DNA of 32,000 bases from Halomicronema hongdechloris C2206 (GCF_002075285.3 NZ_CP021983.2:1350001-1382000), one strand, 5' to 3'; counted from the first letter of the stretch, positions 32 through 28,119 are shown. The notes: generated from the letters alone by a model not told the origin. Translations and numbers: made by a program.

Positions 32-748
32 TTATCCCAGGAGAGCCGAAAATACCCAGTAGTAAATGGATTGTAGTGAGTTTAAACAAGGAATTAGGGT
101 GCTAATTCGTCTATCTAAATCCCTGGGCAGATGTTGCTGAATTGTGTGATAATCATAGGTTTTAGACAGGAGTGCCCGAGGTTGATTTGAGATCCTCAAT
201 GGTAGCCAGAGAACGAAATAATTTGAATAGTTTTGAGTTATTAAAATATCCTCTAAATAGTTCTCGACAGCGCTCTTATCTCGCGGGGTCATTGGTTGCC
301 CATCTGCCCAGGGGGTTAAGAATCGATAGCTTTGAGCTTTTTCTGATAATTGGTCTGATTCGGCAATATAAAAGAATGATTCACAAAAATGGAAAACGCT
401 CTTTTGTCCCAAGCCAAATTTACCAATCTTGGCTGAATTTCCAGCATTAAAATCGATTCCGATCCAACCAATCGCTTTTGCATCAGAATCTCGGAATCCA
501 CCATTATTGACAAAGAATAAAGATGGTTGTTCTAGGAGAGGATGTTCGACTTCTGTTGAGGGTAATCCTGGAGTTACCCCCATATCTAAGCGAGTTGCAC
601 CCGCATCATTCGCATTTTGAAGAATCTCTTTGATAATGGGAAATCCTTCTTTATATCGTTCCTTGAGTAGCGTTTGGATTTGATTAGCGATCGCTCCTGG
701 CGGAACTTCTAATCCTGTTTTGTCAAACTCCTGCATATCGGTAACCAT
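32..748 (-). CDS. Short GHKL (Bergerat-fold) ATPase-like protein of sacsin/MORC-like type. It is the last gene of the helicase operon and may be truncated.
   Basis: ATG at 746-748 and TAA at 32-34. Motifs are EILQNANDAG (N-box, ExxxNAxDA), FVNNGGF (G1-like) and GKFGLGQKSVFH (sacsin-type GxFGLG G2 box). The start lies 17 nt downstream of the UvrD-like stop on the same strand. At 238 aa it is short for this family. Confidence 0.6.
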   Translation of the reverse strand: MVTDMQEFDKTGLEVPPGAIANQIQTLLKERYKEGFPIIKEILQNANDAGATRLDMGVTPGLPSTEVEHPLLEQPSLFFVNNGGFRDSDAKAIGWIGIDFNAGNSAKIGKFGLGQKSVFHFCESFFYIAESDQLSEKAQSYRFLTPWADGQPMTPRDKSAVENYLEDILITQNYSNYFVLWLPLRISNQPRALLSKTYDYHTIQQHLPRDLDRRISTLIPCLNSLQSIYYWVFSALLG

Positions 749-765
749 CAGTAGGCTTATAGAGC

Positions 766-2793
766 TTAGTTGAGAAATTTGCTAGGTTTTCCAACCCAGC
801 AAATGAACAGTTCATCCCTTGCCCGCGTAAGGCTTACGTACAGAAGCTGCCTCTCCCTAGCCAGTACATCCTTCTGTAGCTGAGTATCCTTAGTCCTATT
901 AACGAGATATTTCAGCGGCACCTGGTCATCCGATACATTCACTACAAACACCGCCTTAAACTCCAACCCCTTAGCCCGGTGCATCGTCCCCGCATTCACT
1001 GCCGACTCCCGTGCTCCCCCCTTCCGCAGGTTATGGCACTTGAGCCCAGCTTCCTTCAATGCACTCTCAAGCTGAGTAATCGCCTTGTTAGTACGAGCAA
1101 AAATAGCCACCTCTTCCGGGGCTAACCCCTCCTGGGTAATTGCTTGGATTTGCTTCACCAAGAACTCCTGTTGTTGCTCCTGGGTATTAAATCCCTTCAT
1201 GACGGGCTTGGGTCCACTCAAAAGACTGACCGTTCCCTTACGGCTCTCCTGTCCGCCATCCATGTCATCGCTCTGGTGACCCAGCATGGTATCGGCGAAC
1301 TGTCGAATTTGTTCCGTAGTGCGGTAGTTGATCCGGAGAATATGAGACCGTCCCCGCACATCCACCCCAAGCGCTTTGAGGCTAAACGGGGTGCTGTAAA
1401 TCCGCTGTCCTCCATCGCCTACCAGAGTGAGAGAATCATCCCCGTCTCCCGCCAATGCTGCCAGCAGCATAATCTCCTGGGGGCGCAGGTCCTGAAGTTC
1501 ATCTACGATGACGGCATCGAATGGACTTTCAACCTTCCCCGTGGTGACTAACTCCCTAGCTAAACGGCAAATGGAGGGGTAATCCATGCAACCCTTCTCA
1601 TTCAAGGTTTCATACACCCGCTGAAAAATCTGCCAGACCTGCTTTCGTCCCTTAACCGTTAGCGGAAACCCTCGACCTGTGCGGTTAGCACTGCGGTAGT
1701 CGTCCCAGGTGGTAACACCCTGGTCCTGAATGACCGTTTCCCATTCAGTCTTCAGCAGGTCGGGTTCTAGGGGACAGATACCAGGATGGTAATACTCATC
1801 GATAAGTTTCCAAATCTCGTCGTTATTGATGGGATAGAGATCTGAATTCGCTGTTTTGGCTAAAGCTAGCCCCTGGCTGTGAACCGTCGTTACCGTAATG
1901 CGCGATCGCTCCTCTGAGGTACATAGCAGCTCTAGGTTGTGCTCGATGTTTTCACACAGGGTCGATACATAGCTGGTCAAAAAGACCCGCTTACCCTGCC
2001 GCGCCAGATGTCGGGCTCGGTGCATCGCCACCACGGTTTTGCCCGTTCCGGCAGAACCGGAAACTTTGACAGGGCCAGCGAAGCTGCCTGTAGCCAGCTT
2101 TTGCTGGGAAGGATGGAGGAACGCCACCCAGGTTGCCAGGGGAGCCTCCAGCATTTTCATCAAGTCGTCGTTGTTTTCCATTACAAAGAAACGACGCCGG
2201 GTATCTTGACTAGCGGTAATGGGCTGGTTTTGGGCGATCGCAACTGGAGGCGTGACAAATTCCCCCTCTGCCAGTTTCAGCAGTCGCTCTCCTACATCTT
2301 CGGGCAGCTTAACAACGACTTTCCAGAGGTGGTCTATGTGCTGAACTTTGCGAATAGTGGGTAACCAATCAGTGGGAACGCCCAGGCTCTCCAGGTAATC
2401 ATTGTCATGGTCATCGAAGAGGCGAGGGATTTCAGGAACAAAATATTGAACCTGCTGCTCCACTACATCGGGCGACTCAACAATTTGCAGTGCTCCGGTT
2501 TTGGGGTGCCGGGCGATCTGACGAGTCTCAGCCCACTTATACGCATCGTCATGGTGGTCTGCATGGAGCACTGTCCAGATGTCACTGTCTTTGTGGACAA
2601 TGGCTCTCAATTCTTGGCTGATGCGGCCTGACCAGAGGTTTTCGTTCTTGGTTTGGGTGACCCGCTCCAAACTAAGACTAGGATGAGCTGGGTTTTCGAT
2701 AAACTTAGCCAAAAACTTCCACACTCGCTTCGCATCGTTGGAATCAAGGCGGGCGACCGCAGCTGGGAGGGATTGGTCAATGAGTACAGGCAT
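766..2793 (-). CDS. UvrD/Rep-family SF1 DNA helicase with an extra N-terminal RelE/ParE-like domain
   Basis: 675-aa ORF with ATG at 2791-2793, preceded by GGAGG 7 nt upstream. Walker A is GSAGTGKTVVAMHRA and motif II is VIVDELQDL. Later SF1 motifs are LVGDGGQRIY, INYRTT, GTMHRAKGLEF and YVSLTRARDEL. The first ~95 aa follow the RelE/ParE pattern (see findings). Confidence 0.85.
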   Translation of the reverse strand: MPVLIDQSLPAAVARLDSNDAKRVWKFLAKFIENPAHPSLSLERVTQTKNENLWSGRISQELRAIVHKDSDIWTVLHADHHDDAYKWAETRQIARHPKTGALQIVESPDVVEQQVQYFVPEIPRLFDDHDNDYLESLGVPTDWLPTIRKVQHIDHLWKVVVKLPEDVGERLLKLAEGEFVTPPVAIAQNQPITASQDTRRRFFVMENNDDLMKMLEAPLATWVAFLHPSQQKLATGSFAGPVKVSGSAGTGKTVVAMHRARHLARQGKRVFLTSYVSTLCENIEHNLELLCTSEERSRITVTTVHSQGLALAKTANSDLYPINNDEIWKLIDEYYHPGICPLEPDLLKTEWETVIQDQGVTTWDDYRSANRTGRGFPLTVKGRKQVWQIFQRVYETLNEKGCMDYPSICRLARELVTTGKVESPFDAVIVDELQDLRPQEIMLLAALAGDGDDSLTLVGDGGQRIYSTPFSLKALGVDVRGRSHILRINYRTTEQIRQFADTMLGHQSDDMDGGQESRKGTVSLLSGPKPVMKGFNTQEQQQEFLVKQIQAITQEGLAPEEVAIFARTNKAITQLESALKEAGLKCHNLRKGGARESAVNAGTMHRAKGLEFKAVFVVNVSDDQVPLKYLVNRTKDTQLQKDVLARERQLLYVSLTRARDELFICWVGKPSKFLN

Positions 2794-2804
2794 AGTGTTC
2801 CTCC

Positions 2805-5369
2805 TCAGCTATTTAGCAGATGGTGGGTAATGTCGAGACGGCCCATGCCTTGTTTGCGATCTAGCTGTAGTGCCTGGCCTTCCTTATGAATGCGAATATG
2901 CCAGTACATGCGGTCATCTTTTTCTGTCGTCCAAAAGTCGTCTAATAAAGAAGACAAATCTTGAAAGGGCACCAGGATGGTTTGTTCAGGTGAGCCACAG
3001 CCTAGAGCCACGTATCCCTGGTCGAAGTTCTCCAAAAATTCTTTTTGAGAGGGGTGAAACGCAAACCAGTAGGAGGGTGCCCCGTTATTTTCATGAGTTT
3101 TAGAAATAGTGCAAACGACAGCAGTTGAGCCATCTTCAGTCACATATGCGGTTCGTGATTTTGAAAGCAGAGGTAACCCCAACACTTGAGAAACCCGCTC
3201 AATGCATTTTGGATGAAACCCGACGGGAGGTTCTCTGTCAGAATCGTCTGGTTCACTAACCTCGGGCGTTGCAATCGAGGCAGTCAACTTTTCCTGCTCT
3301 TGCAAGGCAATCATGATGCTGGCTAACGCTGCTTCTAATTGATTACAGCCAACAAGTAAAACCTTTGCACCTGCTCTCTCTAGCGCCGCTTTAATAGCTC
3401 CTGCCGAGAGTTCTTGGCTATCTACCAGATGGAGAACTTTATCGTTCTGAGCTACCTCTGCCAGAAAAGTGCCGACGACAACTCCATTGGCTTCTACATC
3501 ACCACCAGCTTCGATGGTTACCCCTTCAAGCTTGGAAAGTGCTTGCAGGAAAGGATGCCACTGAGATGAAAAGAGGTCATAGTCTACGGAGCCAATATCT
3601 TCTCGCACAATGGTCTTACCCATCGCCTTACCAATGCGGTCTAGCAGTGCTGCTTCTCGGGCACTGAAAAAGTGTTCAAAATCGTTAGCTCTGAGGGCGT
3701 CTGGCGGAATCAGATGCTCTGCCAAAATAGCGTCCATCCTTTCCTTGGAAATTTCCGCGCTTTTCTGAAGAGTGGCGAGATATTTGCTGGGAGGGTTGTT
3801 GCTGACCCGTCGATTGGTACCCGCAGAAAGAGGCGTTTTGTTGATAACGCTGTCGTAGCGCTTAGAATCCAGGCCAGCTTTCCGACACCAATCCTGAGGA
3901 AAGATGTGGTGAATATCGATTTTCTCGTCAAAGTAAACTTGCTCATTAATAGGAATACCAGAACGGAAATCAGGGGCACCATCCTGCATGAGCAAAGCAT
4001 AGATCCCCTTATAAGCCGCACTGTTCCGGGTCTTTAAGCCAAGTAACCGACCCGGTATGAAGTTGGCTGCCGCTACTGTATCTGGCTCTGGTCCTCCATC
4101 TACCCAGGCTAATACCTCTGGCAAATCCTTAGCAAAACGGCTTTCGATCGCACTTCCGTAAAGCTCTCCAAAAACTCCACACCAGTACCAGCGGATTAGC
4201 TTTTGTCTGACTCCGTGGTTGAGGGCTTTTTCGCCCAACACCGTGAAGATGGCAGCCAGGGGAACAAGCTGGGTTTTGTAGGGAATGTCTCGGGCAGTAA
4301 ACATCTTTTGCCCATGGAGTAGCTTGGCCGCCTCTTGAAATCCTCGGGTAATGGGATCTGCCCAGGTTTGATATTCCTCTAGCGTCAACCGCAAAATATC
4401 CCGTCGCTTACAGCTGATGCCAGGAGCCTTTTCGGGGAGAGTGCCGGATGTGATCGCGGCTTTCTGCCGCTGTAACGAAGCGACCAACGTCACGGACTGC
4501 AAGAAGTCAGTACTCTCGATATATTCCAGAATCCGAAATTCTGTTAAGCGAGCCTTGCGATCGGCCCAGTCTTGGCGCAGTAAATAGTCTTCAGCGGCAA
4601 AGGTCGCCGTCAGCAATTCAAAGACAGTTAGGGAAACCCCGCCTGTGTTTACCTTCTCAAATACCTGGCAGACTGCTTCCTTAGGCGTTTCCTTCCCGAG
4701 GGAAATCACAGGTACCTGATACTGCTCAAAGCGTTTGATGATTTCCTTATTGAACTGGCTGAAAAGCTTAATTTTGTCTTTGTCGTAGTCCCAATATTCC
4801 TGGTGTCCCTCCTGCCAATTGGAACAGTCAAAGACCTGGCTGATAGGGAATAAGCCCCGTTCATATTCTTTTTCCGGAGTGGAGTAATCTTCAATCACTT
4901 CGCCCCGGAAATTCTTGACTTGCCGGGTGTCGGGCAGGCTAACAACAGCATCTTCCCGTTCCACATTGGGATTCAATACTGCTTCCATATCAAGGTAATA
5001 CCAGCGGTAAATAGGGCGTCCGCGTAAATCGCGGGTCAGCACTGGGCGTTCTGCGTTAAGTGCCTGAAACAAGGAAGTTAAACGCTGCTGGCCATCAAGA
5101 ATGAGGCGATCTGCTTCAACAGGGGAGGAGAGTTGCACTCCTTCAATAGGTCTGGCCTTAAATTTCACATCTTCATTGCCAGTTTGAAGCATCATGACTG
5201 CGCCAATTGGGTAAGACAGAGAGATGCTAGCCAGAAGGCTCCGAACGTGTTCGTCGTCCCAAACCCATCCGCGCTGAAAATCAGGGAGCTGAATGTCTCC
5301 TTTGCGAATGCTTCTAAGAAGGTCAGAAAGACCTTCTTTTGTGCTGTCAAAGGTAGTCATCGTAGTCAT
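2805..5369 (-). CDS. GmrSD-like DUF262 (ParB-like NTPase, DGQQR) plus DUF1524 (His-Me/HNH-type nuclease) protein with two additional C-terminal modules
   Basis: 854-aa ORF. N-terminal motifs are IQLPDFQRGWVWD and LDGQQRLTSL (DUF262 signatures). The central region carries KIDIHHIFPQDW ... NKTPLSAGTNRRVSNNPPSKY (DUF1524-type His-Me finger). The ATG at 5367-5369 overlaps the upstream stop (ATGA). Confidence 0.85.
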   Translation of the reverse strand: MTTMTTFDSTKEGLSDLLRSIRKGDIQLPDFQRGWVWDDEHVRSLLASISLSYPIGAVMMLQTGNEDVKFKARPIEGVQLSSPVEADRLILDGQQRLTSLFQALNAERPVLTRDLRGRPIYRWYYLDMEAVLNPNVEREDAVVSLPDTRQVKNFRGEVIEDYSTPEKEYERGLFPISQVFDCSNWQEGHQEYWDYDKDKIKLFSQFNKEIIKRFEQYQVPVISLGKETPKEAVCQVFEKVNTGGVSLTVFELLTATFAAEDYLLRQDWADRKARLTEFRILEYIESTDFLQSVTLVASLQRQKAAITSGTLPEKAPGISCKRRDILRLTLEEYQTWADPITRGFQEAAKLLHGQKMFTARDIPYKTQLVPLAAIFTVLGEKALNHGVRQKLIRWYWCGVFGELYGSAIESRFAKDLPEVLAWVDGGPEPDTVAAANFIPGRLLGLKTRNSAAYKGIYALLMQDGAPDFRSGIPINEQVYFDEKIDIHHIFPQDWCRKAGLDSKRYDSVINKTPLSAGTNRRVSNNPPSKYLATLQKSAEISKERMDAILAEHLIPPDALRANDFEHFFSAREAALLDRIGKAMGKTIVREDIGSVDYDLFSSQWHPFLQALSKLEGVTIEAGGDVEANGVVVGTFLAEVAQNDKVLHLVDSQELSAGAIKAALERAGAKVLLVGCNQLEAALASIMIALQEQEKLTASIATPEVSEPDDSDREPPVGFHPKCIERVSQVLGLPLLSKSRTAYVTEDGSTAVVCTISKTHENNGAPSYWFAFHPSQKEFLENFDQGYVALGCGSPEQTILVPFQDLSSLLDDFWTTEKDDRMYWHIRIHKEGQALQLDRKQGMGRLDITHHLLNS

Positions 5370-8300
5370 GTAGGGTCTCCCTGAAAACTCGCTTTAAGGT
5401 TCTGGATAAGTTGGGGATCTTCAGATTGGGCGGCTAAAACGGCAAAGCCCTGAGCCTTCAAGAGTTCTGCAACAGTCTCAAAGTCTGGTTGCTCAGCATC
5501 TACCAGACGCATAGAACGACCGTTAACTGAAACCTCAGCCAGATACTCACCAACCACGCGCCCTCCATCGGCCACGTCCCCACCGGCTTCTACTTGCCAG
5601 TTGTGCTCTTGAGCCAGTTGTTCCATGATGGGCCGCCATCGGGCATCGAAGAGATCAAGGTCAACATGCCCGTCACGTTTATTGTTCTCATTGCTCGTAG
5701 CAGTATCAGAAGTGACAGATCCTTCCCCAAACACACCGGGATATCTCTTGAGAATTTCTGCCCAATCTGCTCGGTAACCAAACCGAAGCACCGTGTAACC
5801 AAAGTCCTCCAGACAATCAGCCTGGTTCTGGTCCCGCTTGTGCCGGTCTGGAAAATCGTGGTGAGGGCCATCCACATAAATCACCGTGGCGTTATCTCGA
5901 TACAGAAAATCAGGCCGAGTTCCACAATCTGGAATCAACACCTGAGCCTCAGAGGGCAAGCGATATCCTCGCGCCTGGAGGTACTGCAACCACTCCCGCT
6001 CAAGACCGGAATCGGTTTTGTTGAGCAATCCATCCAAATGCTCAGTCCGCGACTTCGATGATGGGGAAGCCAGCACCTCAGCTTCCGTTAGCTGCATTAG
6101 AACATCGCGAATTCTCTGACGATCCAGCAGGGCATGGTCTCGCTGGTTGCTGTAGTTCATCAAGCAGTCGTAGCAGGCGGCTTCGCAGTTTTCCTCCGAC
6201 TGCGGTCCATGGCCCAGGTCCTCACCCGTTTCTGGATTAAAGTGGCAAACTTCCAAAGCCGCTTTAGCCACAGAAGCCAGCGCTGTTGGGTCATTCAACA
6301 GCCGCTTCAACACCCCTGCCCCACCCTCAGCAGATTCATAGAACAGAATCAGCCGCCGATCGTCGCGATTTGGCAGAGGTTCCGCAGCTAGTTCATTATC
6401 TTCAAGCTGATAAGTTACTTGGATAGCCTGTTTGAGAGCTGCCTGCAACGAGGCCATTTGCTCAGGTCTGAGGGAGCCCTTCGGCTCAAACAGCAGGCTG
6501 TTGCGGTTGTCCTGCACATAGGGAATTACTCTCGATGTTCGGGGAGATAGGGGATCAGAGACATCCTCTTCCTCAGTGGCTTGCTCGTTCTTAGCCCAGT
6601 AGCCCCGTTCAATATCGAGCACAAAGCCAAACTGATCTTTGTTCTTGCGGCGAGCCCATCCCAGGTTAATACGCCATAGCTCGGCATTTTGGGCATAGGT
6701 CAGCTTGGCCAGATCTTTGCCTTTCCGTTTCACCGTGGCAACCTGGTAAGAGGGATGCCCATCCCGCTCAGGGAAGCGAACTCCCGTACAGAGGTCGTAG
6801 CCCAGGCGCAGGCGTTCTTCTTCGTCAGAGTTAATTTTGTCGCGGCGTTTGGTGGTGACGTTCTGCAGCCGGAAGAGCGATCGCAACGACGTACTCAAAT
6901 CTGCCGCACAGCGTTCACACTTATCCAGCCCTACCCCGTCATTGACCGGATGCAGATAGCCACAGCGGGGACAGGGCTTCACTTCGCCCAGTGACAGGGT
7001 GCCCTCGTCTCCTTCCACTGGCAAAATGACTCGGTTGATCAGGTACTTCGACCCCTCGTGGTACACCACCGAACGGGGACCAAATTCGGATATTGCCAGG
7101 AACCGAGGGCGAGATAGGTACTCCTCCCGGCCCTGACGCATTCGCCGTGCCGGAATGTAGGCCGACAGGGGCAACCGAGGGAAGTTATAGCCCGGCAAGA
7201 ACCCTTCGCTGGCGAAATAGCGATAGCTGTAGAAGTCTGATTGGGCCAGGTTATCCGAAACCGTCAGCAGCTCCAGCTGGGCTTCCGCTTCTCGCCGTAG
7301 CCGTTTGGCCTGGTCCTTATCCCTGGCCGGACGAGAGGCATCCTGGATAATTCGGTTCTGAACATTGAACTGCGCCAGGGCTGCTCGATAAAGGTCTCGC
7401 CACCGCTGGCAGGTATTCTCAAATCGTTGAGCAATTTGAGTGAAGACATTGTCCAGCCAGGTATCGTTGAACAGGCTGGAGTCATCCATCTCCGCCTTCA
7501 AAGTATCCAGAATGCGATGAGCCCGTTTCTTTGCTCTCTGCTTAGCTCCAGCATCATTCAAAGCCGCCAGAACATGGTCCTGCAGTTCCAGCGTAGGGGC
7601 ATCCTCGACCAGGTCAAGCTTGAGAATTTCCTTCAGAGACGAGCCTAGATTTAGACCAGCTTCCGCTAGCCAGACCGCCTGCAGGTGGGCTCGAATTAAG
7701 TCTTCGTTGCTCAGATCCAGCCGGGGCGGGGTGACAGCTCCCGTTACCATACGGTCGGGGCGTTTGAAGAAGTACTGATCGTGGGAGCTGCCCGTTGAAC
7801 AATAGGCAAACACCAGGGCTGGTTGGCCACTGCGCCCGGCTCGGCCACTGCGCTGGGCATAGTTGGCAGGGGTAGGGGGAACATTTCTCAGGTTGACCAC
7901 GTTGAGGTCGGCAATGTCTACCCCCAACTCCATGGTGGGAGAACAGTAAAGGATAGACAGATCCCCGGTTCGGAAAGCTTGTTCTCGCTTTTCCCGTTCA
8001 TCGGAGGGCACTTGGGCGGTATGCTCACGGGCTTCCAGTCCTTGAGTCGTGGCCGCGATTTTGCGATAGAACTCGACAAAGAACTCATTGGTGCGGCTAC
8101 CACCCTCCGGCAGCTGGGGCACACGGGTAGGGTCATGAAAGGGGGTGGTTCCATCGCCCACTGTCCACTGCAGAGCGGAAGCCACCAGTTGATAGCCCGG
8201 CACCTCCCCCTCCTTTTTCGGGGCGAGTACCTCTTCAACAATACCCGCGATTTTCAGCCCTTGCAGCAGTCCCCGAATAATCTGGTCCGTATCCTCTAGC

Positions 8301-10909
8301 TTGAGCCTCTCGCCAAAGTTGTCGAACGTGCTGGTGCGCCGCAAGTATTGACCATAGCCACTCCTCGATGACAGGAAAACATTGCCCCCAAAATCTTCTC
8401 CTTGCTTAAAGGAACGGGGAAATAGGACCGTGGCGTAGTGCAGGGTCTCGTTTTCGTCCAGCGCCCAGGGGTCTTTCAACCGTTGAGAGCTGCGCTGTTG
8501 GATGCGCTCCTGGTAGCGAGCATCTAAATAATCAACCTTGATGGCCAGCTCCCGCCGCATAAAGTCGAGCAGTACTTTAGCCACCTGCACGCGGGTTTCT
8601 GGAGCAGCGCTGACTAATGCCGGATGGCAGGACTGCCAGATGTCTTCGTCCTGGCAAACATCTTCCAGAGAAAGGTATTGAATTTCTAATAGCCCACACT
8701 GCTCCAGGTTGGGCGAGGTAATGCGCCATCCCCGTCGCAGGTCGAGGTAAAGCCGGTAGCCCAGTACATCCCGAAGGGCCTGATGGGTATCTTTTAGGGC
8801 CTGGTATTTAACAGCTGGGTCACTGGCATACAGGTCCAACGGCAGATTGAGGGCATCGAACACCCGCTGGGGTAGCTCATCATGGCGGAGCCCGTCTGTA
8901 CTGGCTCGTTCGACGGCTTTGTATAGGGCTGCCCGCAGGAGCCCCACTTCAATAAAGTCGTTGAAATGTCCGGCCTGCAGCGAGGCATCTTGGCGGTTAT
9001 CGGTAAAGCTGAGGAGTTTCTTCGCAGTTTCCGTCAGGTTAGAGCCCTTGAGTTTCAGAACTGAAGAGAGAGTGAGGATTGTCGTTGCGGTACTCCGCCC
9101 TTCTGATCCTAGAGACGCTAATTTCGCAAAGTCGGAGCGCTGGCGGCTGCCGTAGGAGACACCGCAGTTCAGGCAGAACCGAAAGGGCGTGGGTAGAAAA
9201 TGGCCGAATAGGTCAGGTTCCCCAATAAACCCATCCGTCTTGAAGTGCATGGGTTCAGGCAAATGCTTCTTGCGAGACTGGCGCACCCGTGGCCCTCGAG
9301 TGGGATGTTCCTCAATCCAGTCTTCTGGCAGCAAATTCAGCATGCCTTCTGGGTCTGTGGGCCAGGGATTTCTGGTGTTGAGATAGAGGAAGCCAGATTC
9401 GCTGACGTTGTCGTTTTGGGTATCGGATAACTCACGGGGTTCTAGCTTGGCCTGATCAACCGCGAAGTCATGGGTGCGCCTGACGGCGTAATACTCTTGA
9501 CCACATTCACGGCAAAATACCAGCGGCAGCAAAATGCGGCTGCGATCGCCCGGTACAAACTGCTGGGCCTGAAGGGTAATATGGCGCTCCTCTTCAGTGC
9601 CTAGGGAGGCATAGACCGTGTCGCCTTTGCTGATGAACTGGTGCAGCCGAAAAGCAAAGGGAGCAAAGTCAGTCTCAGGATGTTTAACCTTATGCCCAAT
9701 CAGCAACCCTTCTTTGATGGCTGCAGCACACTGTTCCTTAGGGACATCGATGAGCTGACTTAACGATTCAGCCGCCGCCTGTTTCCCAAGAAGACTTTGT
9801 GGCTTAGCCCTAACGAGACGCCCGGTTTCGGGCTCAGGTTCTACCCCAAAGGTGCCCTCAATCCAAATGGAGAGAGGGTCTTGGATAAAGGTGTCATACT
9901 CACTAGAGAGGGGATTGGGTGGATTGACAATCCGAGTTCTCAACGCCTGAATAAAGGCAGGGTCTTGAAACTCTCGGTCGGGAGTAGCCCGTTTTAGGGT
10001 TTCACCGATGATGTGCTCTGGCTTGACGGTAGTACCAAAGAGCTGAGTGGCGACCTTCGCTACCTCGGCCTGCTGTTCTGAATAAGTGCCGCCACTAGCA
10101 AGGGTGGCGGAAGTGCCGACACACTGGAGGCTGTCAGCAGCCATGCGCTCTCGCACCCGCCTGACCAGCAGGGCAACGTCTGCCCCTTGCCGCCCCCGAT
10201 AGGTGTGGAGTTCATCCAGTACCAGAAACTGCAGCCCCTGAGCCGCTTCAATTAGCTTGCGCTCCTTAGGACGGGTCAGAATCAGCTCCAGCATGACGTA
10301 GTTGGTCAGTAGAATATCAGGGGGATTGTCGAGAATCTGCTGCCGTTCGTCTTCTTTTTCTTGCCCGGTGTAGCGCTCGAAGGTAACCGGAGGTGAACCT
10401 TCGGGATAGCCTTGCTGTAGGAATTTACGGAGTTCTCCGGCCTGGCTGTTGGCCAGGGCATTCATGGGGTAAACCACGATAGCTTGAATCCCTTTTCCAG
10501 AACCCCGCTTCAGCACATGGTTCACGATAGGGATGATGTAGGACAGGCTTTTCCCTGAACCGGTGCCTGTGGTTAAGACATAGTTGTGGCCTTCTGAGGC
10601 TGTCAGCACGGCATCAAACTGATGCTTGTGCAGTCTGAGGGCAGACCCACTGCTCTCTGTTTTACCTTTTTTGACTCTGAATATAGAGGAACACTCTTCG
10701 TGGAGAATGTCACGAGCAACCAGGTCATCAATCCATTCCCCCGGTTCAAAGGAAGGATTGAGTTGAATCAATGGCTCTGGCCAAAGGACCCCCGACTTGA
10801 GCTTCTCTTCGACGTGTTGCTTGATGTGCTCGTCTCGAATCTGAATGAAGCTGGTGACGTACTTGCTGTAGTCGCCAATTAATCCATCGCGGAAGTCAAA
10901 AATATTCAT
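5366..10909 (-). CDS. Giant SF2 DEAD/DEAH-type helicase with DUF1998 (MrfA-type Zn-binding) module, Vsr/DUF559-like endonuclease-fold domain and an unnamed C-terminal domain. It resembles DruE, DrmAB and Hhe.
   Basis: 1847-aa ORF. Helicase motifs are [12 protein letters not shown] (I), [12 protein letters not shown] (Ia), [11 protein letters not shown] (II), GTSATL (III), [10 protein letters not shown] (V) and QRSGRAGR (VI). CxxC pairs are CRECG and CLNCG. The DUF1998-like part has [18 protein letters not shown]...CERC and [18 protein letters not shown]. The Vsr-like part is RPDFLY...[11 protein letters not shown]...GYTVLRFGY. Confidence 0.85.
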
Positions 10910-11023
10910 TGGGGATTAGACCACTAAGCCCTTAAATTGAGACCCTTATCTACTAAGGTGCCCACTATTATTTCTAAGTCATCAAATAAAATCCTTAAAA
11001 TTACGCAGAATTTTAATCTACCT

Positions 11024-11398
11024 TCATGCTTCAATCAAAGGCTCATGTTGAATACTCTTTTCCCCGAAATCTGTTTGCAGTAACCGTCGAATTAGAGTAA
11101 GTCGCTGGACGTCTTGTTGCGTTAACCAGGATTCAATTTCATAAAAGGCTTGTCCATTTTTATACTGGGTCCGTAGCGTCAGAATCGTTTCCGGCAGGTG
11201 GTGGTTATCTCCCTTGAATTCAATATTCAGATTTCGACCCCGCTCCACAATCATGTAGAACTGCTTACCCTCAAACACTCGCTGCCCAAGAGGTTGGTCT
11301 TGACAGAACCGTTCCAGGAGAAGCACAGCAGTTCCCGCAATCTGCTCTTGGGTCTTGCGGTCAACCGGGATAGGTTCTCTAGCTTTAGGTGATTTCAC
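11024..11398 (-). CDS. Hypothetical protein, third gene of the ParM-like operon
   Basis: 124-aa ORF. Its GTG start at 11396-11398 overlaps the stop of the upstream ORF (GTGA, 11395-11398), which suggests translational coupling. No family recognised. Confidence 0.45.
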   Translation of the reverse strand: MKSPKAREPIPVDRKTQEQIAGTAVLLLERFCQDQPLGQRVFEGKQFYMIVERGRNLNIEFKGDNHHLPETILTLRTQYKNGQAFYEIESWLTQQDVQRLTLIRRLLQTDFGEKSIQHEPLIEA

Positions 11399-11940: not shown

Positions 11941-13074
11941 CTAGCGGGGTTGAGCCGGTGCAGCGCTGTACATGAACGTCTTGAACAACCCATAGACATC
12001 TGCCCAGCGAACGCTGGTAATCAAATCAGGCTCTGCTGTCCCCTCCTGTCCTCGGAGCACATCCATCATTTCCGGCCTTAACGTCTCCGCCCAGGCAATC
12101 TGCTGAGTGAGTCCCCGCTGGTCAAAAAACTGCTTTAACTCTGCACGGATGAAATAGGCGGCACCGCCACCCACAATCACGTCCACTTCGGAAGCGGGCA
12201 GCCACTCCACCAAAAATTGATTGACTCGCTCCAGGTAAAACTCGCGAGCATAGATGCTGGCTTGAGACAGATCGAGGGCTTCCTGCCGACCGGGAATCTG
12301 AAACGTTTCATGGTTCTGAAGAATGGCTTCGAGCAAAGCTGGGTCATCGGGAGCGACACCAGGCAATTCAGTTGCACATTGCTTCAGGTACTCCACAAAT
12401 CCAGGTCCTCGAGAAGTGCTGTTGGTTTCCTGGGGAGTGCTGCCCTTCTCGAAGGTAAGGATGGAGAGATTGCGGTGGCCAAACATGAGGACAACAACAG
12501 TGCGATCGCGAATACTGATACCCGATTTTGCCAACTGCAACCCCTTCGCTAGATAAAGCCCCGCTCCCTCCGGCTGCATCTCGATTCGCTCTAGCTGCCC
12601 AGAGAGGACTTTGCCACGAAAGCTGAATTCTGAAATTGCCCCTTGCATCTGGGCTTTGAGTTCTTTCCGGTCTTGCCAGTATTCCTCCAGCGGCAGCAGC
12701 AACCCTAAATGAACTCCGAACTCACAACCAGAGTTGTCAGAATCATGTCTACTCAAAGTCTTGTCGGCAATAACGCCTAATGTCGCCAGGATTTTGTAGA
12801 CGGCGCGATCGCGCTTCGGCAGAGCTAATCCAGAGTCGCCCTTTTGAGCGATCGCGAGTGCCCCAACGGCATAGGTGCCATTGCCCACCGTGATGTAAGC
12901 ACTATCTTCCGGTTCCTGACTGGTGAGTCCGCCTAACGTGAGGCGATCGAGGCGGGAGGGGTTGAGGCGAGCCACTTGCGGAGCCAGGTGCAGTAATTCA
13001 GGTTTACGATGCCAATAAAAACACTTGGTCGCGGAGCTACCCATGTCAATGTAAGTCTGGAGCTTTGCAGTCAT
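11941..13074 (-). CDS. Actin-fold (ParM/Alp-like) plasmid segregation ATPase
   Basis: 377-aa ORF. The N-terminal YIDMGSSATK fits the phosphate-1 DxGxxxxK motif of ParM-type actins. VIVGGGAAYF fits the adenosine/GGG motif. The phosphate-2 region (VVLMFGHRNLSILTF) is divergent. The gene sits next to a relaxase and upstream of two small genes, as in parMR loci. Confidence 0.55.
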   Translation of the reverse strand: MTAKLQTYIDMGSSATKCFYWHRKPELLHLAPQVARLNPSRLDRLTLGGLTSQEPEDSAYITVGNGTYAVGALAIAQKGDSGLALPKRDRAVYKILATLGVIADKTLSRHDSDNSGCEFGVHLGLLLPLEEYWQDRKELKAQMQGAISEFSFRGKVLSGQLERIEMQPEGAGLYLAKGLQLAKSGISIRDRTVVVLMFGHRNLSILTFEKGSTPQETNSTSRGPGFVEYLKQCATELPGVAPDDPALLEAILQNHETFQIPGRQEALDLSQASIYAREFYLERVNQFLVEWLPASEVDVIVGGGAAYFIRAELKQFFDQRGLTQQIAWAETLRPEMMDVLRGQEGTAEPDLITSVRWADVYGLFKTFMYSAAPAQPR

Positions 13075-13655
13075 AAATAAAAGCCAAATAACGACTTGTC
13101 ATCAACAACATGAAGGCATTTAGAGAGCCCTGTCATTGCTAAATGACACTCTCATTTTGGCGAGTCGTTTTAATTCACGACTTAATCGCGGTTGAATTGT
13201 GATTTCTAGTAAATTTCATCAATGACATGATGCAGATTACTTCGATACTGCAGTGTTGGAGCACGGCTTGATCACGACTTAACCATAAGTAAAATGGTCT
13301 GTAGGCCACAATGAAAAAGATCCATGTCATAATTAACAACTTAAAAAAGGCTCTTTCACGATTTGAAAATGACTTACCAGAATTTTTGCGCTGGTTGCAG
13401 TAGACTTGCTCATAATTGTGATTTTCAAGAACTAATTTCACAGCATTTCTGATGACTGAAAGTCGGCGTTCTACCTGAGCTAAAACTGGAGACATCAGCG
13501 CGTTTTCTCAACAGCAGATTTCTGGGAGAGAACGACAGGCAACTGAATATTGGAGGCTACGCCACTCCACTGCGTTTCGTAGCTTCGCTTCCACACACCA
13601 CGCCCAGCCCTGGGCCAGGGGGTTCTGGAAACCCCGTTCAGTAAGGGATGCAGTC
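13075..13655. promoter_or_regulatory. Divergent intergenic region, mostly AT-rich (about 13075-13500). Candidate parC-like centromere and/or oriT plus promoters.
   Basis: It lies between the ParM-like gene (minus) and the RHH/relaxase operon (plus). The 11-mer TCACGACTTAA occurs twice (13175-13185, 13272-13282) and ACGACTT once more at 13091-13097. The hexamer TGTCAT/ATGACA occurs five times (13097, 13131, 13143, 13222, 13325). One pair forms a 7-bp-arm inverted repeat at 13131-13148. An imperfect palindrome GCGAGTCGT...ACGACTTAATCGC lies at about 13160-13189. Confidence 0.35.
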
Positions 13656-14018
13656 GTGGTTGAGAATCACCGCTCATGTATTGAATTCACGGAAAAACTG
13701 ATGGGTAAAGGATTTAGCGTATCGCTGCCCCTAGAAGAGGCCGCAGCGGTGGAAAAAGAGGCCAATCGGCTGGGATTGCCAGCAGCCAGCATCATTCGGT
13801 TAATGATGCGTGAGGGTCAGCAGCGTCACGAACTGGAGCACCAGATGGATGACCTGAAGGCCCGGATCGAGCGGTTGCAGGTGCGGTTTCAAGGTCTGCA
13901 GATTTTGCTGGAGACGATCGCTCTGGAGCAAGCCAATGCCCGAGGGCCACAAGCCCTGGAAAATCGGAAGGCGCTGATTCAGGAGATTCGCAAGCGCCAA
14001 GACCAGGTGGGCGGGTAG
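13656..14018 (+). CDS. Ribbon-helix-helix (CopG/MobC-like) relaxosome accessory protein
   Basis: The ORF opens with GTG at 13656, but ATG at 13701 (MGKGFSVSLPLEEAAAVEKEANRLGLPAASIIRLMMREG) is the more likely start. It has a strand-helix-helix pattern followed by a coiled-coil tail. The stop at 14016-14018 overlaps the AGGAGG ribosome-binding site of the relaxase. Confidence 0.6.
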   Translation: MVENHRSCIEFTEKLMGKGFSVSLPLEEAAAVEKEANRLGLPAASIIRLMMREGQQRHELEHQMDDLKARIERLQVRFQGLQILLETIALEQANARGPQALENRKALIQEIRKRQDQVGG

Positions 14019-14028
14019 GAGGTGGGTC

Positions 14029-16710
14029 ATGCTGAGCCTGACGGTGATCAGCCCCAACCAGGGCGAAACCTACTACACCGCTGAAAACTACTACTCCAAT
14101 GAGGAGAACCAGGCCAACTCGACCTGGTCGGGTAAAGGGGCCAGATCGCTGGGGTTATCGGGCCAGGTGCAGGGCGAGGCCTTTAAGAACCTGCTCCACG
14201 GCAACAGTACTCAGGGCGACAAAACCCTGTCGGGGCGGAAGATCAATCCCGAAAAGCATCGGGCAGGCATTGACCTGACCTTCAGTGCGCCGAAAAGTCT
14301 CAGTCTGGCCGCGCTGGTCGGAGGCAACGAAGCCTTGGAGCAAGCTCATCGCACGGCGATGGCTCGAACGCTAGAAGTCATCGAGGAGCGGTATGCCCAG
14401 ACGCGAGTACGGACGGAGGAGGGAAGAAAAGCGATCGCTACCGGCAATCTCATCGTGGCCCAGTTTCACCACGACACCTCTCGGGAGAAAGACCCGCAGT
14501 TGCACACCCACTGTGTCGTCATCAATGCCACGCAACTGGCAGACGGACGCTGGCAGTCCCTGCACAATGACATTCTGTTCAAGCAGCAGAAACTGCTGGG
14601 GATGATTTACCAGAACGAACTGGCAGTCGAGGTGCAGCGGTTGGGCTATGCCATTGACCCTAGAGCTAATGGTCAGTTTGAACTACAGGGGTATCGACCG
14701 GCAGACCTGCAAACCTTTTCTAAACGGCGGGAGCAGATTTTGGCGACGGTGGGAGAGAATGCCACGGCCCAGGAGCGGGAGCTGGCCACCCTGATGACGC
14801 GAGCACCCAAGGGCAAGGAAATTCCCCGGGAGGAACTGCGAGCTTACTGGCAGGCGCAAGCCGAGGTTTTGCATCTGGAGCATCCCCAGCCTCGGGTCCT
14901 GGACTGGCAAAGTGATCTGAAAAAGGCGGTGCAGGCAGGGCTGAATCATTGCTCCGAGCGGGAGGCGGTGTTCCGGCGAGAGCAGGTGGAGCGCTTTGCC
15001 CTGGAGAATCATCTGGGGCAGCAATTCTTTGAGGACTTGCAGCAGACCCTCGATACCGATCCGGAGGTAATTCACACCGATGATCAGCGGTTGACGACGC
15101 AGACGGCGGTGCTGAGAGAGCTAGAAACGATTCGGACGGTACTGGAGGGCCGAGGGCAGGTGGGGGCAATTGCCAGCGAAGGTTGGGTGGCAGCGACTTT
15201 GGCAGATCAGGGGTTAACGCAAGGTCAGTATGAGGGGATTTTGCTGGCGGCGACGACTCGCGATCGCGTTATTGCCTGGCAGGGGGTGGCAGGAGCCGGG
15301 AAAAGTTTTGCCTTGAACCAGTTCCGCCGGATTGCGGAGGCTCAAGGGTACACCGTTCGAGGCTTTGCTCCCAGTGCGGAGGCGGCAAAGTCGTTGGGGG
15401 AGTCGGCCCAGATTCAGCAGACAGAGACGGTGGCAGCGTTGCTCTGTGCTCAGCCCCAGGAGACACCCTCTCAGTTTCCAGAGATCTGGGTGGTGGATGA
15501 GGCGGGACTTTTAAGCGCAAAAGATGCTCTGGCGCTGCTGACCCAGGCTCAGGAGCAGCAGGCGCGCGTGATTCTGGTGGGGGACACCCGGCAGTTGTCA
15601 GCAGTGGAAGCGGGGAATCCATTCAAGAGCTTGCAGCAGGCAGGGATGGTGACGGCTTACCTGCATCAGTCTTTGCGGCAGAAGAACCGGCAGATTAAGG
15701 CTGGGGTAGATCTGATTGCGGAAGGGAAGATTGCGGAAGGAATTCAGCAACTAAAGCCATACATTCATCAGGTGAGTAGTGAGGAGGCGAGGGCGCAGGA
15801 GATCGCCCATGACTATCTGACCCTGACGCCGGAGGAGCGACGGAAAACGCTTCTGCTGGCAGGGACAAACCGGGAGCGGTTGGCCATCACTCAAGCAATT
15901 CGAGCAGGACTAAAGTCGGAGGGGCAGTTAGGCCAGAATGTTCTGATGCAGCGGCTCAAGGCCAGGGATTTGACCTCGGTGCAGATGGCCTATGCTCACC
16001 ACTTTCAGGTCGGTGATGTGCTGATGCCCCAGGCCAGTTACAGGCGATGGGGGTTGGAGCGGGGACAGCGGTATGAGGTGCTTGCAGTGGATGTGCAGCA
16101 GAATGTGGTGACCCTGCGGGCTGAGAGGGGACCTGCTGTGCAGGTTGATCCAGCCAGGGTTGGGAAGAAGTCGGTGTACAGGATCGAGGAGATTGAGGTG
16201 GCGATCGGGGACCGTCTGAAATGGACGAAGAACCAGGCCACGCTGGGCCGCCGCAATGGGCAGGAGTTTGAGGTCTACGGCATTGAGGATGGGCAGGTTC
16301 TGATTCATTATGGCAGCGGAAAAACAGAAAGTCTGAGCTGTTCAGAGCTGGCCCATCTGGACTATGCCATGGTGAGCACGACCTACGGAGCTCAAGGCAA
16401 GTCAGCGGAGCGGGTGATTGGGGCGTTGGATCGGCATCTGGGGCGGGAGAACTTTTATGTGACGGTAAGTCGGGTGAAGCATGACCTGAGGCTTTACGCT
16501 TCCGAGGATTTGGACCGGCTGATTGCGCGGGCAGAGCAGTCCAGGGCGAAGGAGAATCCAGGGGAGGTGGTGAGAATTCAGCAGGATGGCGATCAGCAAC
16601 TAGCCTCTGTGCAGACCATAAGGCATCAGAATAGCGACCTAAGCTTCCGAAACTTGGATGAGGAGAAGCAAGGACCGCCGTTGAATAACAAGATTGAATT
16701 GGAACGCTGA
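14029..16710 (+). CDS. MOBF-family conjugative relaxase (TrwC/TraI-like) fused to an SF1 (RecD/TraA-like) helicase
   Basis: 893-aa ORF with ATG at 14029, preceded by AGGAGG at 14016-14021. The N-terminus has tyrosine pairs (GETYYTAENYY) and WSGKGARSLGLSG. The histidine triad is HHDTSREKDPQLHTHCVVINAT. Helicase motifs are GVAGAGKSF (Walker A), IWVVDEAGLLS, LVGDTRQLSAVEAGNPF, TTYGAQGKS and YVTVSRVKHDL. Confidence 0.9.
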   Translation: MLSLTVISPNQGETYYTAENYYSNEENQANSTWSGKGARSLGLSGQVQGEAFKNLLHGNSTQGDKTLSGRKINPEKHRAGIDLTFSAPKSLSLAALVGGNEALEQAHRTAMARTLEVIEERYAQTRVRTEEGRKAIATGNLIVAQFHHDTSREKDPQLHTHCVVINATQLADGRWQSLHNDILFKQQKLLGMIYQNELAVEVQRLGYAIDPRANGQFELQGYRPADLQTFSKRREQILATVGENATAQERELATLMTRAPKGKEIPREELRAYWQAQAEVLHLEHPQPRVLDWQSDLKKAVQAGLNHCSEREAVFRREQVERFALENHLGQQFFEDLQQTLDTDPEVIHTDDQRLTTQTAVLRELETIRTVLEGRGQVGAIASEGWVAATLADQGLTQGQYEGILLAATTRDRVIAWQGVAGAGKSFALNQFRRIAEAQGYTVRGFAPSAEAAKSLGESAQIQQTETVAALLCAQPQETPSQFPEIWVVDEAGLLSAKDALALLTQAQEQQARVILVGDTRQLSAVEAGNPFKSLQQAGMVTAYLHQSLRQKNRQIKAGVDLIAEGKIAEGIQQLKPYIHQVSSEEARAQEIAHDYLTLTPEERRKTLLLAGTNRERLAITQAIRAGLKSEGQLGQNVLMQRLKARDLTSVQMAYAHHFQVGDVLMPQASYRRWGLERGQRYEVLAVDVQQNVVTLRAERGPAVQVDPARVGKKSVYRIEEIEVAIGDRLKWTKNQATLGRRNGQEFEVYGIEDGQVLIHYGSGKTESLSCSELAHLDYAMVSTTYGAQGKSAERVIGALDRHLGRENFYVTVSRVKHDLRLYASEDLDRLIARAEQSRAKENPGEVVRIQQDGDQQLASVQTIRHQNSDLSFRNLDEEKQGPPLNNKIELER

Positions 16711-20543: not shown

Positions 20544-21084
20544 TGATAATCGGCAACGTCTAGTTTGATTACTCAGAGATGGAGAGTAGCCCTTGCTGAA
20601 CTGCTGCTCTACTTACGGCCAATCTATCTCCTCGTTTAATTTTCGAGAAATTTTGGATAGATGGTGGGAAAAATCCAGATTCTCTTTACTCAGAGCGTCA
20701 ATGACGGCACCATCCCTATCGGCAAACAGAGCAGAGGAATGAGCAAACTGGTAGTACATGCAGCAGATCAAGTAGCTCTATCCCGTCATTAACCAGAATG
20801 AGGATACAGCGAAGAAGCTACAGGAAGCAGCAGCTCTTGATACTAAAGGGTTTAACCGCTTTGGGGGCTGCGTTACGGGGGCTGTAGCGGATGCTTTTTG
20901 CCGTTCTCCCACTTCAACTTTACGAATCAATTACAACATTTGCTTGCATGGTGTATTTGTACTAAGCTAGATGCGTTTCGTTTAAGGGCTCTACACAAAA
21001 TTGGATGCATCCTTTTTTGTCCGATCGCTGATGAGCGCTCCATCAGGCATTAAACAGTGATGAACCATTGAAAGGAACTAATCC

Positions 21085-21255
21085 ATGACTCCACTTGAAC
21101 GCTTGAAAGCAGGCTTGGAAAGATCTAAAGAAAACGGATGCGAAGACACTAGTACGGCTAATCAGTCTCAGCAAGATTATGAGCAACGGGCTGATGAAGC
21201 TGATCGCCAGTTACGTGAAAAGCAAGCTCGCGAATTGAAGAAGTTCTGGAGCTAA
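21085..21255 (+). CDS. Small charged hypothetical protein (56 aa)
   Basis: ATG at 21085 follows AAAGGA, and TAA is at 21253-21255. The translation is MTPLERLKAGLERSKENGCEDTSTANQSQQDYEQRADEADRQLREKQARELKKFWS. It falls below the ORF-track cutoff and has no recognised family. Confidence 0.25.
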   Translation: MTPLERLKAGLERSKENGCEDTSTANQSQQDYEQRADEADRQLREKQARELKKFWS

Positions 21256-21392
21256 ATTGAAGCTTGGCTGAGTTTTAGCCATCTGCCTCCTTAGATTAGG
21301 AAACCTGTCTCCTCGGTAATTTGCTGTGATGTAATAGCCGAGGAGCCGGATTTCTTTATGAAAACTAAATACAGAAGCATCCTGTTTATCGT

Positions 21393-21629
21393 TTGGGCTC
21401 TAGTAGAGGGGATTGGTCTTTAATATACCTATCCTTTGGAGCCATGCCACCCGAAGAGAATTTTGAGCAGCAACTTAGAAAGCTAGTTTTTGAAGATAAC
21501 TGTGATCTGGACGATGCTTTTACTCAAGCAAAAAATGATCACCAAAACCTTGCTGGAAAAGCCGACAAGCTTTTCGAGATCAAGCAAAAAGTCGCTTTAG
21601 ATCTTAAAAATTTTAAGCGCAAGTCTTGA
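21393..21629 (+). CDS. Small charged hypothetical protein; probable start at 21444 gives 61 aa
   Basis: The internal ATG at 21444 is preceded by GGAG (MPPEENFEQQLRKLVFEDN...). The product is predicted helical and Lys/Glu-rich. No family recognised. Confidence 0.3.
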   Translation: MGSSRGDWSLIYLSFGAMPPEENFEQQLRKLVFEDNCDLDDAFTQAKNDHQNLAGKADKLFEIKQKVALDLKNFKRKS

Positions 21630-21677
21630 CGGCAGATCAATCTGGATGACATGCAAATACAATTTCCAATTCTGTCG

Positions 21678-22706: not shown

Positions 22707-22800
22707 AACCCAGGAATTTGACCATAGCCAACTGTATGATCTTTAAGGGGAGTCTTTAAGCTTGCGTCGTCAACTTTTCTTAACACCCGATTAGCTTCGC

Positions 22801-25425: not shown

Positions 25426-25489
25426 ATTCTGATGTTTTCTGGCTACATTCCAAATCTGCTAAGCGTTATTCGATTTTCCAATTCAAAAG

Positions 25490-27922: not shown

Positions 27923-28119
27923 ACGTGACGAATCCCGTCAACTTTGAAATACAACAGCGAAAGCTGCCTGAATCATAGCCTTTTGCCCGCTTTGCCGTGA
28001 CTCCGATGGTTTGTGAAGTGGCGCATTGCTTATTGGACAGAGTGCGATCGTGACATTCCATTTTAGAGCAACTATGAAGTTCGGAAAACACAGCGGACCT
28101 ACTCAGGTACAGTGCTGAG

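Follow-up and report, generated by a model that had tools for sequence, protein, structure and literature searches.

ARMADA comprises a Druantia-related YprA helicase with a C-terminal active Vsr domain, a BrxHII-like SNF2 protein, and a PglX-like methyltransferase (MTase) (Bell et al. 2025, PMC12458937, bioRxiv 10.1101/2025.09.15.676423). The helicase gene is usually the first in Type I; ArmD is the hallmark of Type II, in which the gene order is strictly A-B-C-D (Bell et al. 2025, PMC12458937). For ARMADA II, all four genes are necessary, as are the methyltransferase motif of ArmB and the Walker motifs of ArmA, ArmC, and ArmD, and protection is non-abortive, that is, the cell is not killed (PMC13463889). 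Furthermore, it is common for GmrSD-like genes (HEC-05, which is BrxU, and HEC-06) to be embedded, in the same orientation, in Hma, BREX, DISARM, and type I restriction-modification (R-M) systems, and they were proposed to cover phages with modified DNA (Payne et al. 2024, bioRxiv 10.1101/2024.01.29.577857). Here we describe four genes (g1, g2, g3, and g4) at positions 32-10909 of a 32,000-nucleotide (nt) stretch of Halomicronema hongdechloris C2206 (NZ_CP021983.2:1350001-1382000), the whole of which is called the window. We consider it probable that this locus is the 5' portion of a cyanobacterial ARMADA Type I variant with an embedded GmrSD nuclease and a broken fourth gene, and the same assessment covers the mechanism proposed below.

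A first-pass annotation, made from the sequence alone, had described the locus as four packed open reading frames (ORFs) on one strand, in the order superfamily 2 (SF2) helicase + DUF1998 + Vsr-like, DUF262/DUF1524, RelE + UvrD, and GHKL-type ATPase. All four are present on the minus strand at the coordinates of Table 1, in agreement with that annotation, and profile searches upheld the domain order. Reading of the sequence also gave the same junctions, namely a stop and a start codon overlapping as ATGA at 5366-5369, a spacer of 11 nt at 2794-2804 ahead of g3 (GGAGGAACACT), and one of 17 nt at 749-765 ahead of g4. Because g1-g3 encode 675-1847 amino acids (aa) and have thousands of homologues, these ORFs are regarded as real and not as chance ORFs. 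The accessions of the four proteins span ASC70365.1 to ASC70362.1.

Table 1 Features of the locus and its upstream boundary.
Feature	Position	Strand	Length or residues	Accession, locus tag	Description
g1	5366-10909	-	1847 aa	ASC70365.1, XM38_013030	ArmC-like YprA-family SF2 helicase-nuclease
Vsr/DUF559-type nuclease domain of g1	5690-6022	-	aa ~1630-1740		Predicted active
Shared module of g1	5393-5671	-	C-terminal ~90 aa, aa ~1747-1839		
g2	2805-5369	-	854 aa	ASC70364.1, XM38_013020	Long-form GmrSD-like (DUF262 + putative His-Me) type IV nuclease
DUF1524/His-Me motif of g2	3759-3929	-	aa ~481-537		Putative; IDIHHIFPQ...NKTPLS..N
Shared module of g2	3315-3593	-	aa ~593-685		AlphaFold2 (AF2) per-residue confidence (pLDDT) >90
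C-terminal domain (CTD) of g2	2808-3242	-	aa ~710-854		Candidate DNA-reader domain
g3	766-2793	-	675 aa	ASC70363.1	ArmD-like; RelE-fold N-terminus + UvrD/GajB-like superfamily 1 (SF1) helicase
RelE/YoeB-fold domain of g3	2509-2793	-	aa 1-~95		
g4	32-748	-	238 aa		5' remnant of ~819-aa sacsin/TmtA-like HATPase gene
Upstream intergenic region	10910-11038	-			One sigma-70-like site (11038-11010); 5' boundary of conserved block

The domains found in g1 with Pfam were DEAD (aa 96-271), Helicase_C (aa 950-1028), MZB (DUF1998; aa 1488-1583), and DUF559. The Vsr domain matched DUF559 (E = 7.7e-6) and MTES_1575 (E = 0.007), and its RPDF...YVDG..H core was kept across the relatives. The Walker A (GTGSGKS) and B motifs, both CxxC motifs, and the Vsr core were all intact and conserved, and the Vsr nuclease is predicted to be active. 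Indeed, g1 (ASC70365.1/XM38_013030) is catalogued as 'ARMADA Type I helicase' of H. hongdechloris C2206 in Table S1 of Bell et al. 2025 (PMC12458937), and its placement in the Type I clade is that of their published phylogeny. The anti-phage role proposed in the first-pass annotation was borne out; its view that the combination had no name did not hold, since g1 is listed in ARMADA and g3 is homologous to the validated ArmD. The likeness to Type I lies in the YprA core, the CxxC zinc modules, DUF1998, and the C-terminal Vsr domain of g1, and, in the relatives, in the helicase-first order and the SNF2 and PglX/Eco57I-like MTase genes downstream. The locus differs from Type I in two respects: the helicase and SNF2 are separated by a further two to three genes, those for GmrSD-long, the ArmD-like helicase, and a variable ATPase, and the helicase of the window's clade has an extra C-terminal domain of ~90 aa.

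In three relatives (L001 7151-8497, L093 4118-5462, and L094 4115-5461; at least 90% identity), an ORF on the opposite strand splits the g1 orthologue at aa ~1220-1373. The insert encodes 448 aa or 347 + 124 aa without a Pfam match, and it may represent an insertion element that has escaped annotation or something akin to an intron.

In PADLOC searches, the top matches of g1 were DruE3 (9e-103), DruE1, and DruE2 (to 1e-81), which agrees with the relation to Druantia DruE that had been pointed out from the sequence. The solved structures nearest to g1 were helicases of ~2000 aa (1.8e-45), which we take to be DruE from their size and date alone. These PADLOC scores and structures would accord with a Druantia subtype, in which DruE has new partners in place of DruH or DruA-D, and so would the BLASTP comparison, in which g1 was about equally similar to E. 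coli ArmC (E = 5e-31) and E. coli DruE (E = 1e-28). However, the release used, PADLOC-DB 2.0.0, is older than ARMADA, so that DruE was the nearest model on offer; this also explains why the SNF2 and MTase proteins of the relatives scored best against the DpdE, DrmD, and DrmMI models. No DruA-D, DruM/F/G, or DruH model matched any neighbour of g1 in the window by PADLOC, and the earlier remark that DruA-D and DruH were missing from the window stands. Like Druantia type III, the locus has a large YprA-family DExH helicase-nuclease with DUF1998, but type III DruE carries PLD domains, whereas the C-terminus of g1 consists of DUF559/Vsr and the ~90-aa module. In addition, the partners in the relatives are ArmA- and ArmB-like, and the published phylogeny puts g1 in ARMADA Type I. 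We therefore give a Druantia subtype next to no likelihood.

Other helicase systems were likewise more distant. The SNF2 and MTase proteins of the relatives match DrmD and DrmMI of DISARM class 1 (DrmA/B/C/D/MI), in which a DUF1998 helicase is also central; however, the helicase and DUF1998 are fused here in one protein, there is no PLD protein DrmC, and by clade the helicase sits closer to Druantia than to DrmA. The first-pass annotation had compared the helicase-Vsr fusion of g1 with the single-gene Hhe architecture, and the shared module does occur on SF1 helicase + MTES_1575 proteins of that general kind. This comparison failed: HheA is a single-gene SF1 (DUF4011/AAA_11/AAA_12) + Vsr protein, whereas g1 is an SF2 (DEAD/Helicase_C) protein of a multi-gene locus, and the HheA model was absent from the 25 best PADLOC matches of g1. 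Hma was rejected as well; the SNF2 protein of the relatives matched HmaA (3e-60), but the DpdE and DrmD models scored far better, and the helicase is classified as ARMADA.

Gene order was compared among related loci, for which the similarities given here for L002, L003, L040, and L089-L094 are relative to the window or its genes. L093 and L094 (91-94% DNA identity) carry g1, g2, g3, a 781-aa nSTAND3-like gene, SNF2 (975 aa), a small toxin-antitoxin pair, and an Eco57I-type MTase (>1679 aa). L089 (g3, 96%) contains g2, g3, and an SNF2 gene overlapping the stop codon of g3, and L092 (g3, 85%) contains g1, g2, g3, a sacsin-like gene (823 aa), an insertion sequence (IS), a 367-aa gene, a second sacsin-like gene (1512 aa), and SNF2. 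L090 and L091 (g3, 85%) have g3 directly after g1, without g2, and SNF2 follows 7 kb on, past an inserted cassette on the opposite strand. More distantly, L002 (~61-66%) carries g1, g2, g3, SNF2, a transglutaminase gene, and MTase, adjoining CBASS; L003 (g2, 55%; g3, 60%) carries a divergent DUF1998 helicase, g2, and g3; and L040 (g3, 74%) has g3 alone. An intact relative is the Leptolyngbya iicbica locus RZM79120-RZM79122, which has SNF2 and MTase genes. The g1-g3 pairing was kept in every locus of the clade, from 96% down to ~60% identity. These gene orders indicate that g1 and g3 are a conserved pair, that g2 is optional, and that g4 is not conserved.

The SNF2 gene was found downstream in every close relative with enough sequence, and the Eco57I/PglX-type MTase in those extending further. 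The SNF2 protein was 28% identical to ArmA over 640 aa (E = 1e-47), and the MTase matched ArmB with E values of 7e-19 to 4e-27; the PADLOC values were 2e-84 for SNF2 against DrmD and 7e-68 for MTase against DrmMI. Furthermore, a metagenome scan anchored on g1 gave 60 loci, ~20 of which had downstream sequence. In all of these ~20 canonical loci, the helicase, which shares 58-63% identity with g1 along aa 1-~1730, was directly followed by SNF2 and then by MTase, with no GmrSD gene, no ArmD-like gene, and no C-terminal module. The cyanobacterial clade of the window therefore shows linked differences, since its helicase has the additional ~90-aa C-terminal domain, an ArmD-like gene comes next, and a long GmrSD gene lies between the two in most members. 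Its architecture joins the backbone of Type I to a hallmark of Type II, the ArmD-like gene.

The relatives also bear on a self-contained, MTase-free composite in which g1-g4 act together. Consistent with such a composite, the four ORFs are tightly coupled and no MTase domain was found in any ORF of the 32-kb window, so that the term methylase-less, used in the first-pass annotation, holds for the window; it does not hold for the system, as the relatives carry MTase downstream. Those with enough sequence have SNF2 and the further-reaching ones MTase, L090 and L091 do without g2, g4, a stump of 238 aa left from a gene for 819 aa, occurs in one relative only, and g1 is already classed as ARMADA, all of which make the composite very improbable. 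The methylase-less appearance is most likely an effect of the window's edge or of a rearrangement. Nor did co-occurrence of the four genes across genomes hold up, because g2 is absent from L090/L091, g4 is found in one relative, and the ~20 canonical loci lack both g2 and g3. In essence, the locus resolves into systems that have already been defined, and its four genes are not conserved together.

The variability extends to other positions of the related loci. In L090 (12283-18747), the opposite-strand cassette between the ArmD-like and ArmA-like genes encodes Trypco1, Trypsin-iSTAND, MoxR-like AAA, VWA, FGE-sulfatase, and DUF7847 proteins, and represents a further conflict system lodged within ARMADA. 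Variable content also marks the position between SNF2 and MTase, which is occupied by a 468-aa transglutaminase-core protein in L002 (17501-18907) and by a UPF0175/DUF3368 toxin-antitoxin pair in L093 (17561-18237).

E. coli O157 Sakai (NC_002695), in which ECs_5259-5264 correspond to DruH, DruE, and ArmA-D, was used as the reference for Type II. g3 has UvrD Pfam domains and a GSAGTGKT Walker A motif, matched GajB in PADLOC (1.5e-33), and was 34% identical to the validated ArmD of this strain (ECs_5264) over its full length (aa 3-674; E = 1.7e-117). As had been proposed from the sequence, the N-terminal domain has a RelE fold. The AF2 model of residues 1-230 (pLDDT 88.8) gave the RelE, YoeB, and YafQ toxins as the top Foldseek matches in PDB (E = 6e-4; template modelling score ~0.7; root-mean-square deviation 2.8 Å over ~85 residues). 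E43, R44, R57, R63, H81, and Y85 were invariant in this domain, and because these E, R, H, and Y residues are kept, it is probably functional. Compared with Type II (E. coli armABCD, z5899-z5902/ECs_5261-5264), all four protein families occur in this operon family, and g3 includes the RelE-like domain. The differences are that g1 belongs to the Type I clade and is without the extra EEP and second-Vsr domains (no EEP was found by profile search), that the order in the clade is not A-B-C-D, and that the shared module was undetectable in E. coli ArmC.

g3 is one of a large family of proteins of ~690 aa. Proteins with RelE-like and UvrD domains and 35-38% identity to g3 over the full length were found in L009-L088 (e.g. 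L011 4134-12082). In 65 of 81 loci, mostly of Alphaproteobacteria, the g3-like RelE-UvrD protein is encoded third, after Res (~1015 aa) and Mod (~934 aa), in operons resembling type III R-M, and ~13 loci add a short GmrSD gene on the same strand, ~45% identical to the g2 core. These Res-Mod-RelE-UvrD operons indicate that type III R-M, too, has ArmD-like helicases at its side. An ArmD-like gene has likewise been recruited by another system with a YprA helicase, L066 (2-12160), in which a type IIG/DrmMI-like MTase is followed by a DruE-like helicase of 2124 aa that bears HNH (ZorE-like) at its C-terminus, and then by a g3-like RelE-UvrD helicase.

Three or four single-gene defences could also lie side by side in a defence island, uncoupled from each other. 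Close homologues of the g2 core and of g3 are solitary amid housekeeping genes (L005, L006, and L040), and distant relatives of g3 serve type III R-M operons, both of which would fit independent action. On the other hand, the pairing of g1 and g3 described above is conserved in all loci of the clade, ArmD is essential in ARMADA II, and g2 is tied to g1 by the stop/start overlap, the 11-nt spacer, and the common module; hence independence of the genes seems improbable.

In g2, the GmrSD_N/DUF262 match was strong (E = 3.5e-35), and the DGQQR NTPase motif (LILDGQQRLTSL) was read in the sequence. The DUF1524/His-Me part of the first-pass assignment was less firm, with a weak GmrSD_C match (E = 0.0056 on a sub-fragment, below the Pfam cut-off) and an HH...N motif seen in the sequence. 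The PADLOC matches were PDC-M55C and HEC-05 (2e-24). PDC-M55 was rejected as the system, since only its C component matched g2 and it was absent from the best hits of g1 and g3. Like BrxU/GmrSD/HEC-05 (Picton 2021; Payne et al. 2024), g2 has DUF262 (DGQQR), here with a putative His-Me motif, and sits as a same-strand insert within a helicase/methylase system; it differs by a C-terminal extension of 260 aa and is too diverged for a sequence match to the BrxU or SspE structures, no solved structure including these being matched at E <= 0.01.

The core of g2 (aa 1-590) falls in a very large protein family, whose members have ~610 aa, are 60-67% identical to g2, and stand alone among housekeeping genes (e.g. 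L005 and L006). The C-terminal extension of ~260 aa, consisting of the shared module and the CTD, was found in 7 of the 120 clusters listed (90%-identity clusters of 5.8 billion proteins), and the AF2 model of residues 585-854 (pLDDT 87.5) showed two domains. The alignment of L090/L091 to the window skips from 5377 to 2851, which indicates a precise indel of g2 between g1 and g3; g2 is an embedded, optional cassette. The CTD is also fused behind PD-(D/E)xK-like N-termini in ~395-aa proteins, with invariant C, S, W, H, GCG, and P. Such recurrence behind another nuclease domain is typical of type IV reader domains, and the CTD is accordingly a candidate reader.

These ~395-aa proteins (P0281-P0296) form an unannotated family with a PD-(D/E)xK-like N-terminus (GFDG...EVKT motif) and a g2-type CTD, probably an uncharacterised family of restriction-like enzymes. 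In L004 (624-10615), a g2 homologue of the long form (69% identity; both module and CTD present) comes after a methyltransferase (DUF1156), a PIN protein, and an SNF2 helicase of 1075 aa; the contig has no YprA helicase. This locus indicates that GmrSD-long is able to embed in at least one other helicase/methylase system.

The module at the C-terminus of g1 (aa 1747-1825) was 39% identical to that of g2 over 79 aa by BLASTP (E = 9e-14). Among the helicases compared, it was present only on those of the window's clade and was missing from the ~20 canonical Type I loci; it was undetectable in E. coli ArmC or DruE. When 1.84 billion representative proteins were searched with HMMER, 83 carriers were found, in which the module was almost always C-terminal. 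It occurs alone (100-170 aa) or fused to SF1 helicase + MTES_1575/Vsr, MZB + DUF559, PDDEXK_1, McrC, NERD + UvrD, UvrD alone, or NERD + kinase. The module had no Pfam match, and a 32-sequence profile of it had no match in PDB by sequence (best E = 0.06). The non-significant Foldseek matches to the AF2 model of module and CTD were PvuRts1I (5.5e-3), Bax1, RecU, VRR-NUC, and DUF2726, and the comparison of the module with the Vsr domain by hhalign was weak (P = 7.6e-4, probability 25%), which is a hint at most of a degenerate Vsr-like fold. Speculatively, the module might physically tether or co-regulate the nucleases of g1 and g2. In a more specific form of this idea, GmrSD-long would be wired into ARMADA through the module, a common adaptor for docking or regulation that might serve the ArmD-like UvrD helicase, so that one motor complex would direct Vsr against unmodified DNA and His-Me against modified DNA; we put this forward tentatively and consider it rather unlikely. 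If it were true, the module would be a new adaptor domain family for bacterial DNA-targeting immunity and, as an interaction adaptor, would help to explain the coupling of embedded defences to their host systems.

g4 encodes a sacsin-type HATPase (Pfam SACS, 1e-16; NCBIfam, 6.6e-20). It was 95% identical to aa 1-230 of P0276, an 819-aa protein, and diverged right after "WVFS"; all remaining members of its 90%-identity cluster are of 819 aa. Similarly, it was 71% identical to the 823-aa SACS protein of L092, with which DNA homology stops at nt 56. g4 is therefore a 5' remnant keeping aa 1-234 and broken at window nt ~46/47. The short GHKL gene of the first-pass annotation thus does have an HATPase domain, but it is short only as the truncated remnant of an 819-aa gene; it falls short of the full-length ~800-1600-aa Tiamat (TmtA)/sacsin-like ATPases, and its TmtA matches were confined to the N-terminus. 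The 46 nt past the break matched nothing, and window nt 1-70 were not repeated in the window or in any locus. A gene of this type was found in one relative only; the same slot contains the nSTAND3-like gene in L093 and is empty in L089.

The break in g4 raises the possibility of a decayed remnant, in which the remainder of the sacsin-like gene was lost along with armA/armB when the DNA was rearranged at nt ~46/47, and only g2 works, as stand-alone type IV restriction. If the break were a deletion that took armA/armB, ARMADA would be dead here and only g2 active. The unrelated sequence after the break, the requirement of ARMADA II for all four genes, the solitary genes of the g2 core family in other genomes, and the disruption of orthologous loci (the insert in g1 and IS elements) are all consistent with such decay. 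However, g1, g2, and g3 are intact and full-length with all catalytic motifs conserved, which argues for ongoing selection on them, and the same picture would arise if an IS had been inserted, in which case armA/armB would follow a few kb on, as in L092. Decay of this kind is possible, but we regard it as unlikely.

Several observations weigh against assigning the locus to an ARMADA Type I variant. armA and armB (SNF2 and MTase) are not within the window, which stops 31 nt after g4 with the operon running beyond it, and they may be gone from this copy through the rearrangement by which g4 was cut short. The helicase is of Type I, yet the order C-(GmrSD)-D-...-A-...-B matches neither published type exactly. 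In addition, the g1 orthologues of L001, L093, and L094 are interrupted by the inserted ORF, indicating that some copies are decaying, and the module together with the CTD gave no significant structural match by Foldseek against PDB and BFVD.

For the ARMADA Type I variant, a mechanism was drawn from ARMADA II genetics and from work on DISARM and Druantia. The ArmB-like enzyme would methylate host DNA as a self mark, and the ArmC-like helicase would load on invader DNA that is unmethylated or contains single-stranded DNA, translocate, and cut it via Vsr. The ArmA-like and ArmD-like ATPases would assist, both activities being required, and by analogy the defence would be direct and non-abortive. 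GmrSD-long probably adds modification-dependent restriction against phages with hypermodified DNA, like BrxU inside BREX. The module common to the g1 C-terminus and the middle of g2 may, speculatively, couple g2 to g1 or g3.

The locus does not represent a new defence system, as its helicase is already in ARMADA Type I and the embedding of GmrSD has already been described. What may be new is the ArmD-like gene of the clade, usually with GmrSD-long, on a Type I backbone, and the unannotated ~90-aa module. The text of Bell et al. 2025 (PMC12458937) does not mention this architecture or associations with GmrSD, sacsin, and transglutaminase genes, and the domain table of the same report (PMC12458937) lists no extra C-terminal domain on Type I ArmC. 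The locus therefore documents a cyanobacterial ARMADA architecture mixing a Type I helicase with a Type II-type ArmD-like helicase, and it extends the 'embedded defence' pattern to ARMADA. Furthermore, it exposes an uncharacterised domain common to two neighbouring nucleases and to many other immune nucleases and helicases.

Upstream, DNA homology with the related loci ends at 10909-10933, i.e. at the g1 start codon, and the genes beyond it are therefore regarded as not part of the system. The sigma-70-like match in the upstream intergenic region was not above chance level. The replicon had been thought to be mobilisable; it is the 5,577,845-bp chromosome (g2 is 100% identical to XM38_013020), and a megablast search of the window against PLSDB gave no match, but a relaxase and a ParM-like gene do lie nearby. 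Small ORFs come first upstream of g1, followed by the ParM-like gene, the TrwC relaxase gene, and then an EAD10-NACHT STAND NTPase cluster, and the locus may sit in an integrated element. The ParM-like actin (ALP_N) gene and the gene for the 893-aa TrwC relaxase-helicase, at 11941-16710 in chromosomal context, suggest that a conjugative or mobilisable element has integrated or that part of a plasmid was captured; no tRNA was found within the 32-kb window.

Five genes at 17010-30417 encode an N-terminal EAD10 effector-associated domain, and the GC content of this region varies from 0.38 to 0.59. Four of the products are EAD10-NACHT STAND NTPases (1177, 874, 810, and 765 aa) with or without HEAT or NCH2 repeats, and the fifth is a 342-aa EAD10-only protein; together they look like a paralogous NLR-like immune cluster. 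A caspase/CHAT-like protein of 348 aa (Peptidase_C14, 5e-19), encoded at 30423-31469 on the minus strand and immediately downstream of an EAD10-NACHT gene, may be the effector protease of the cluster.

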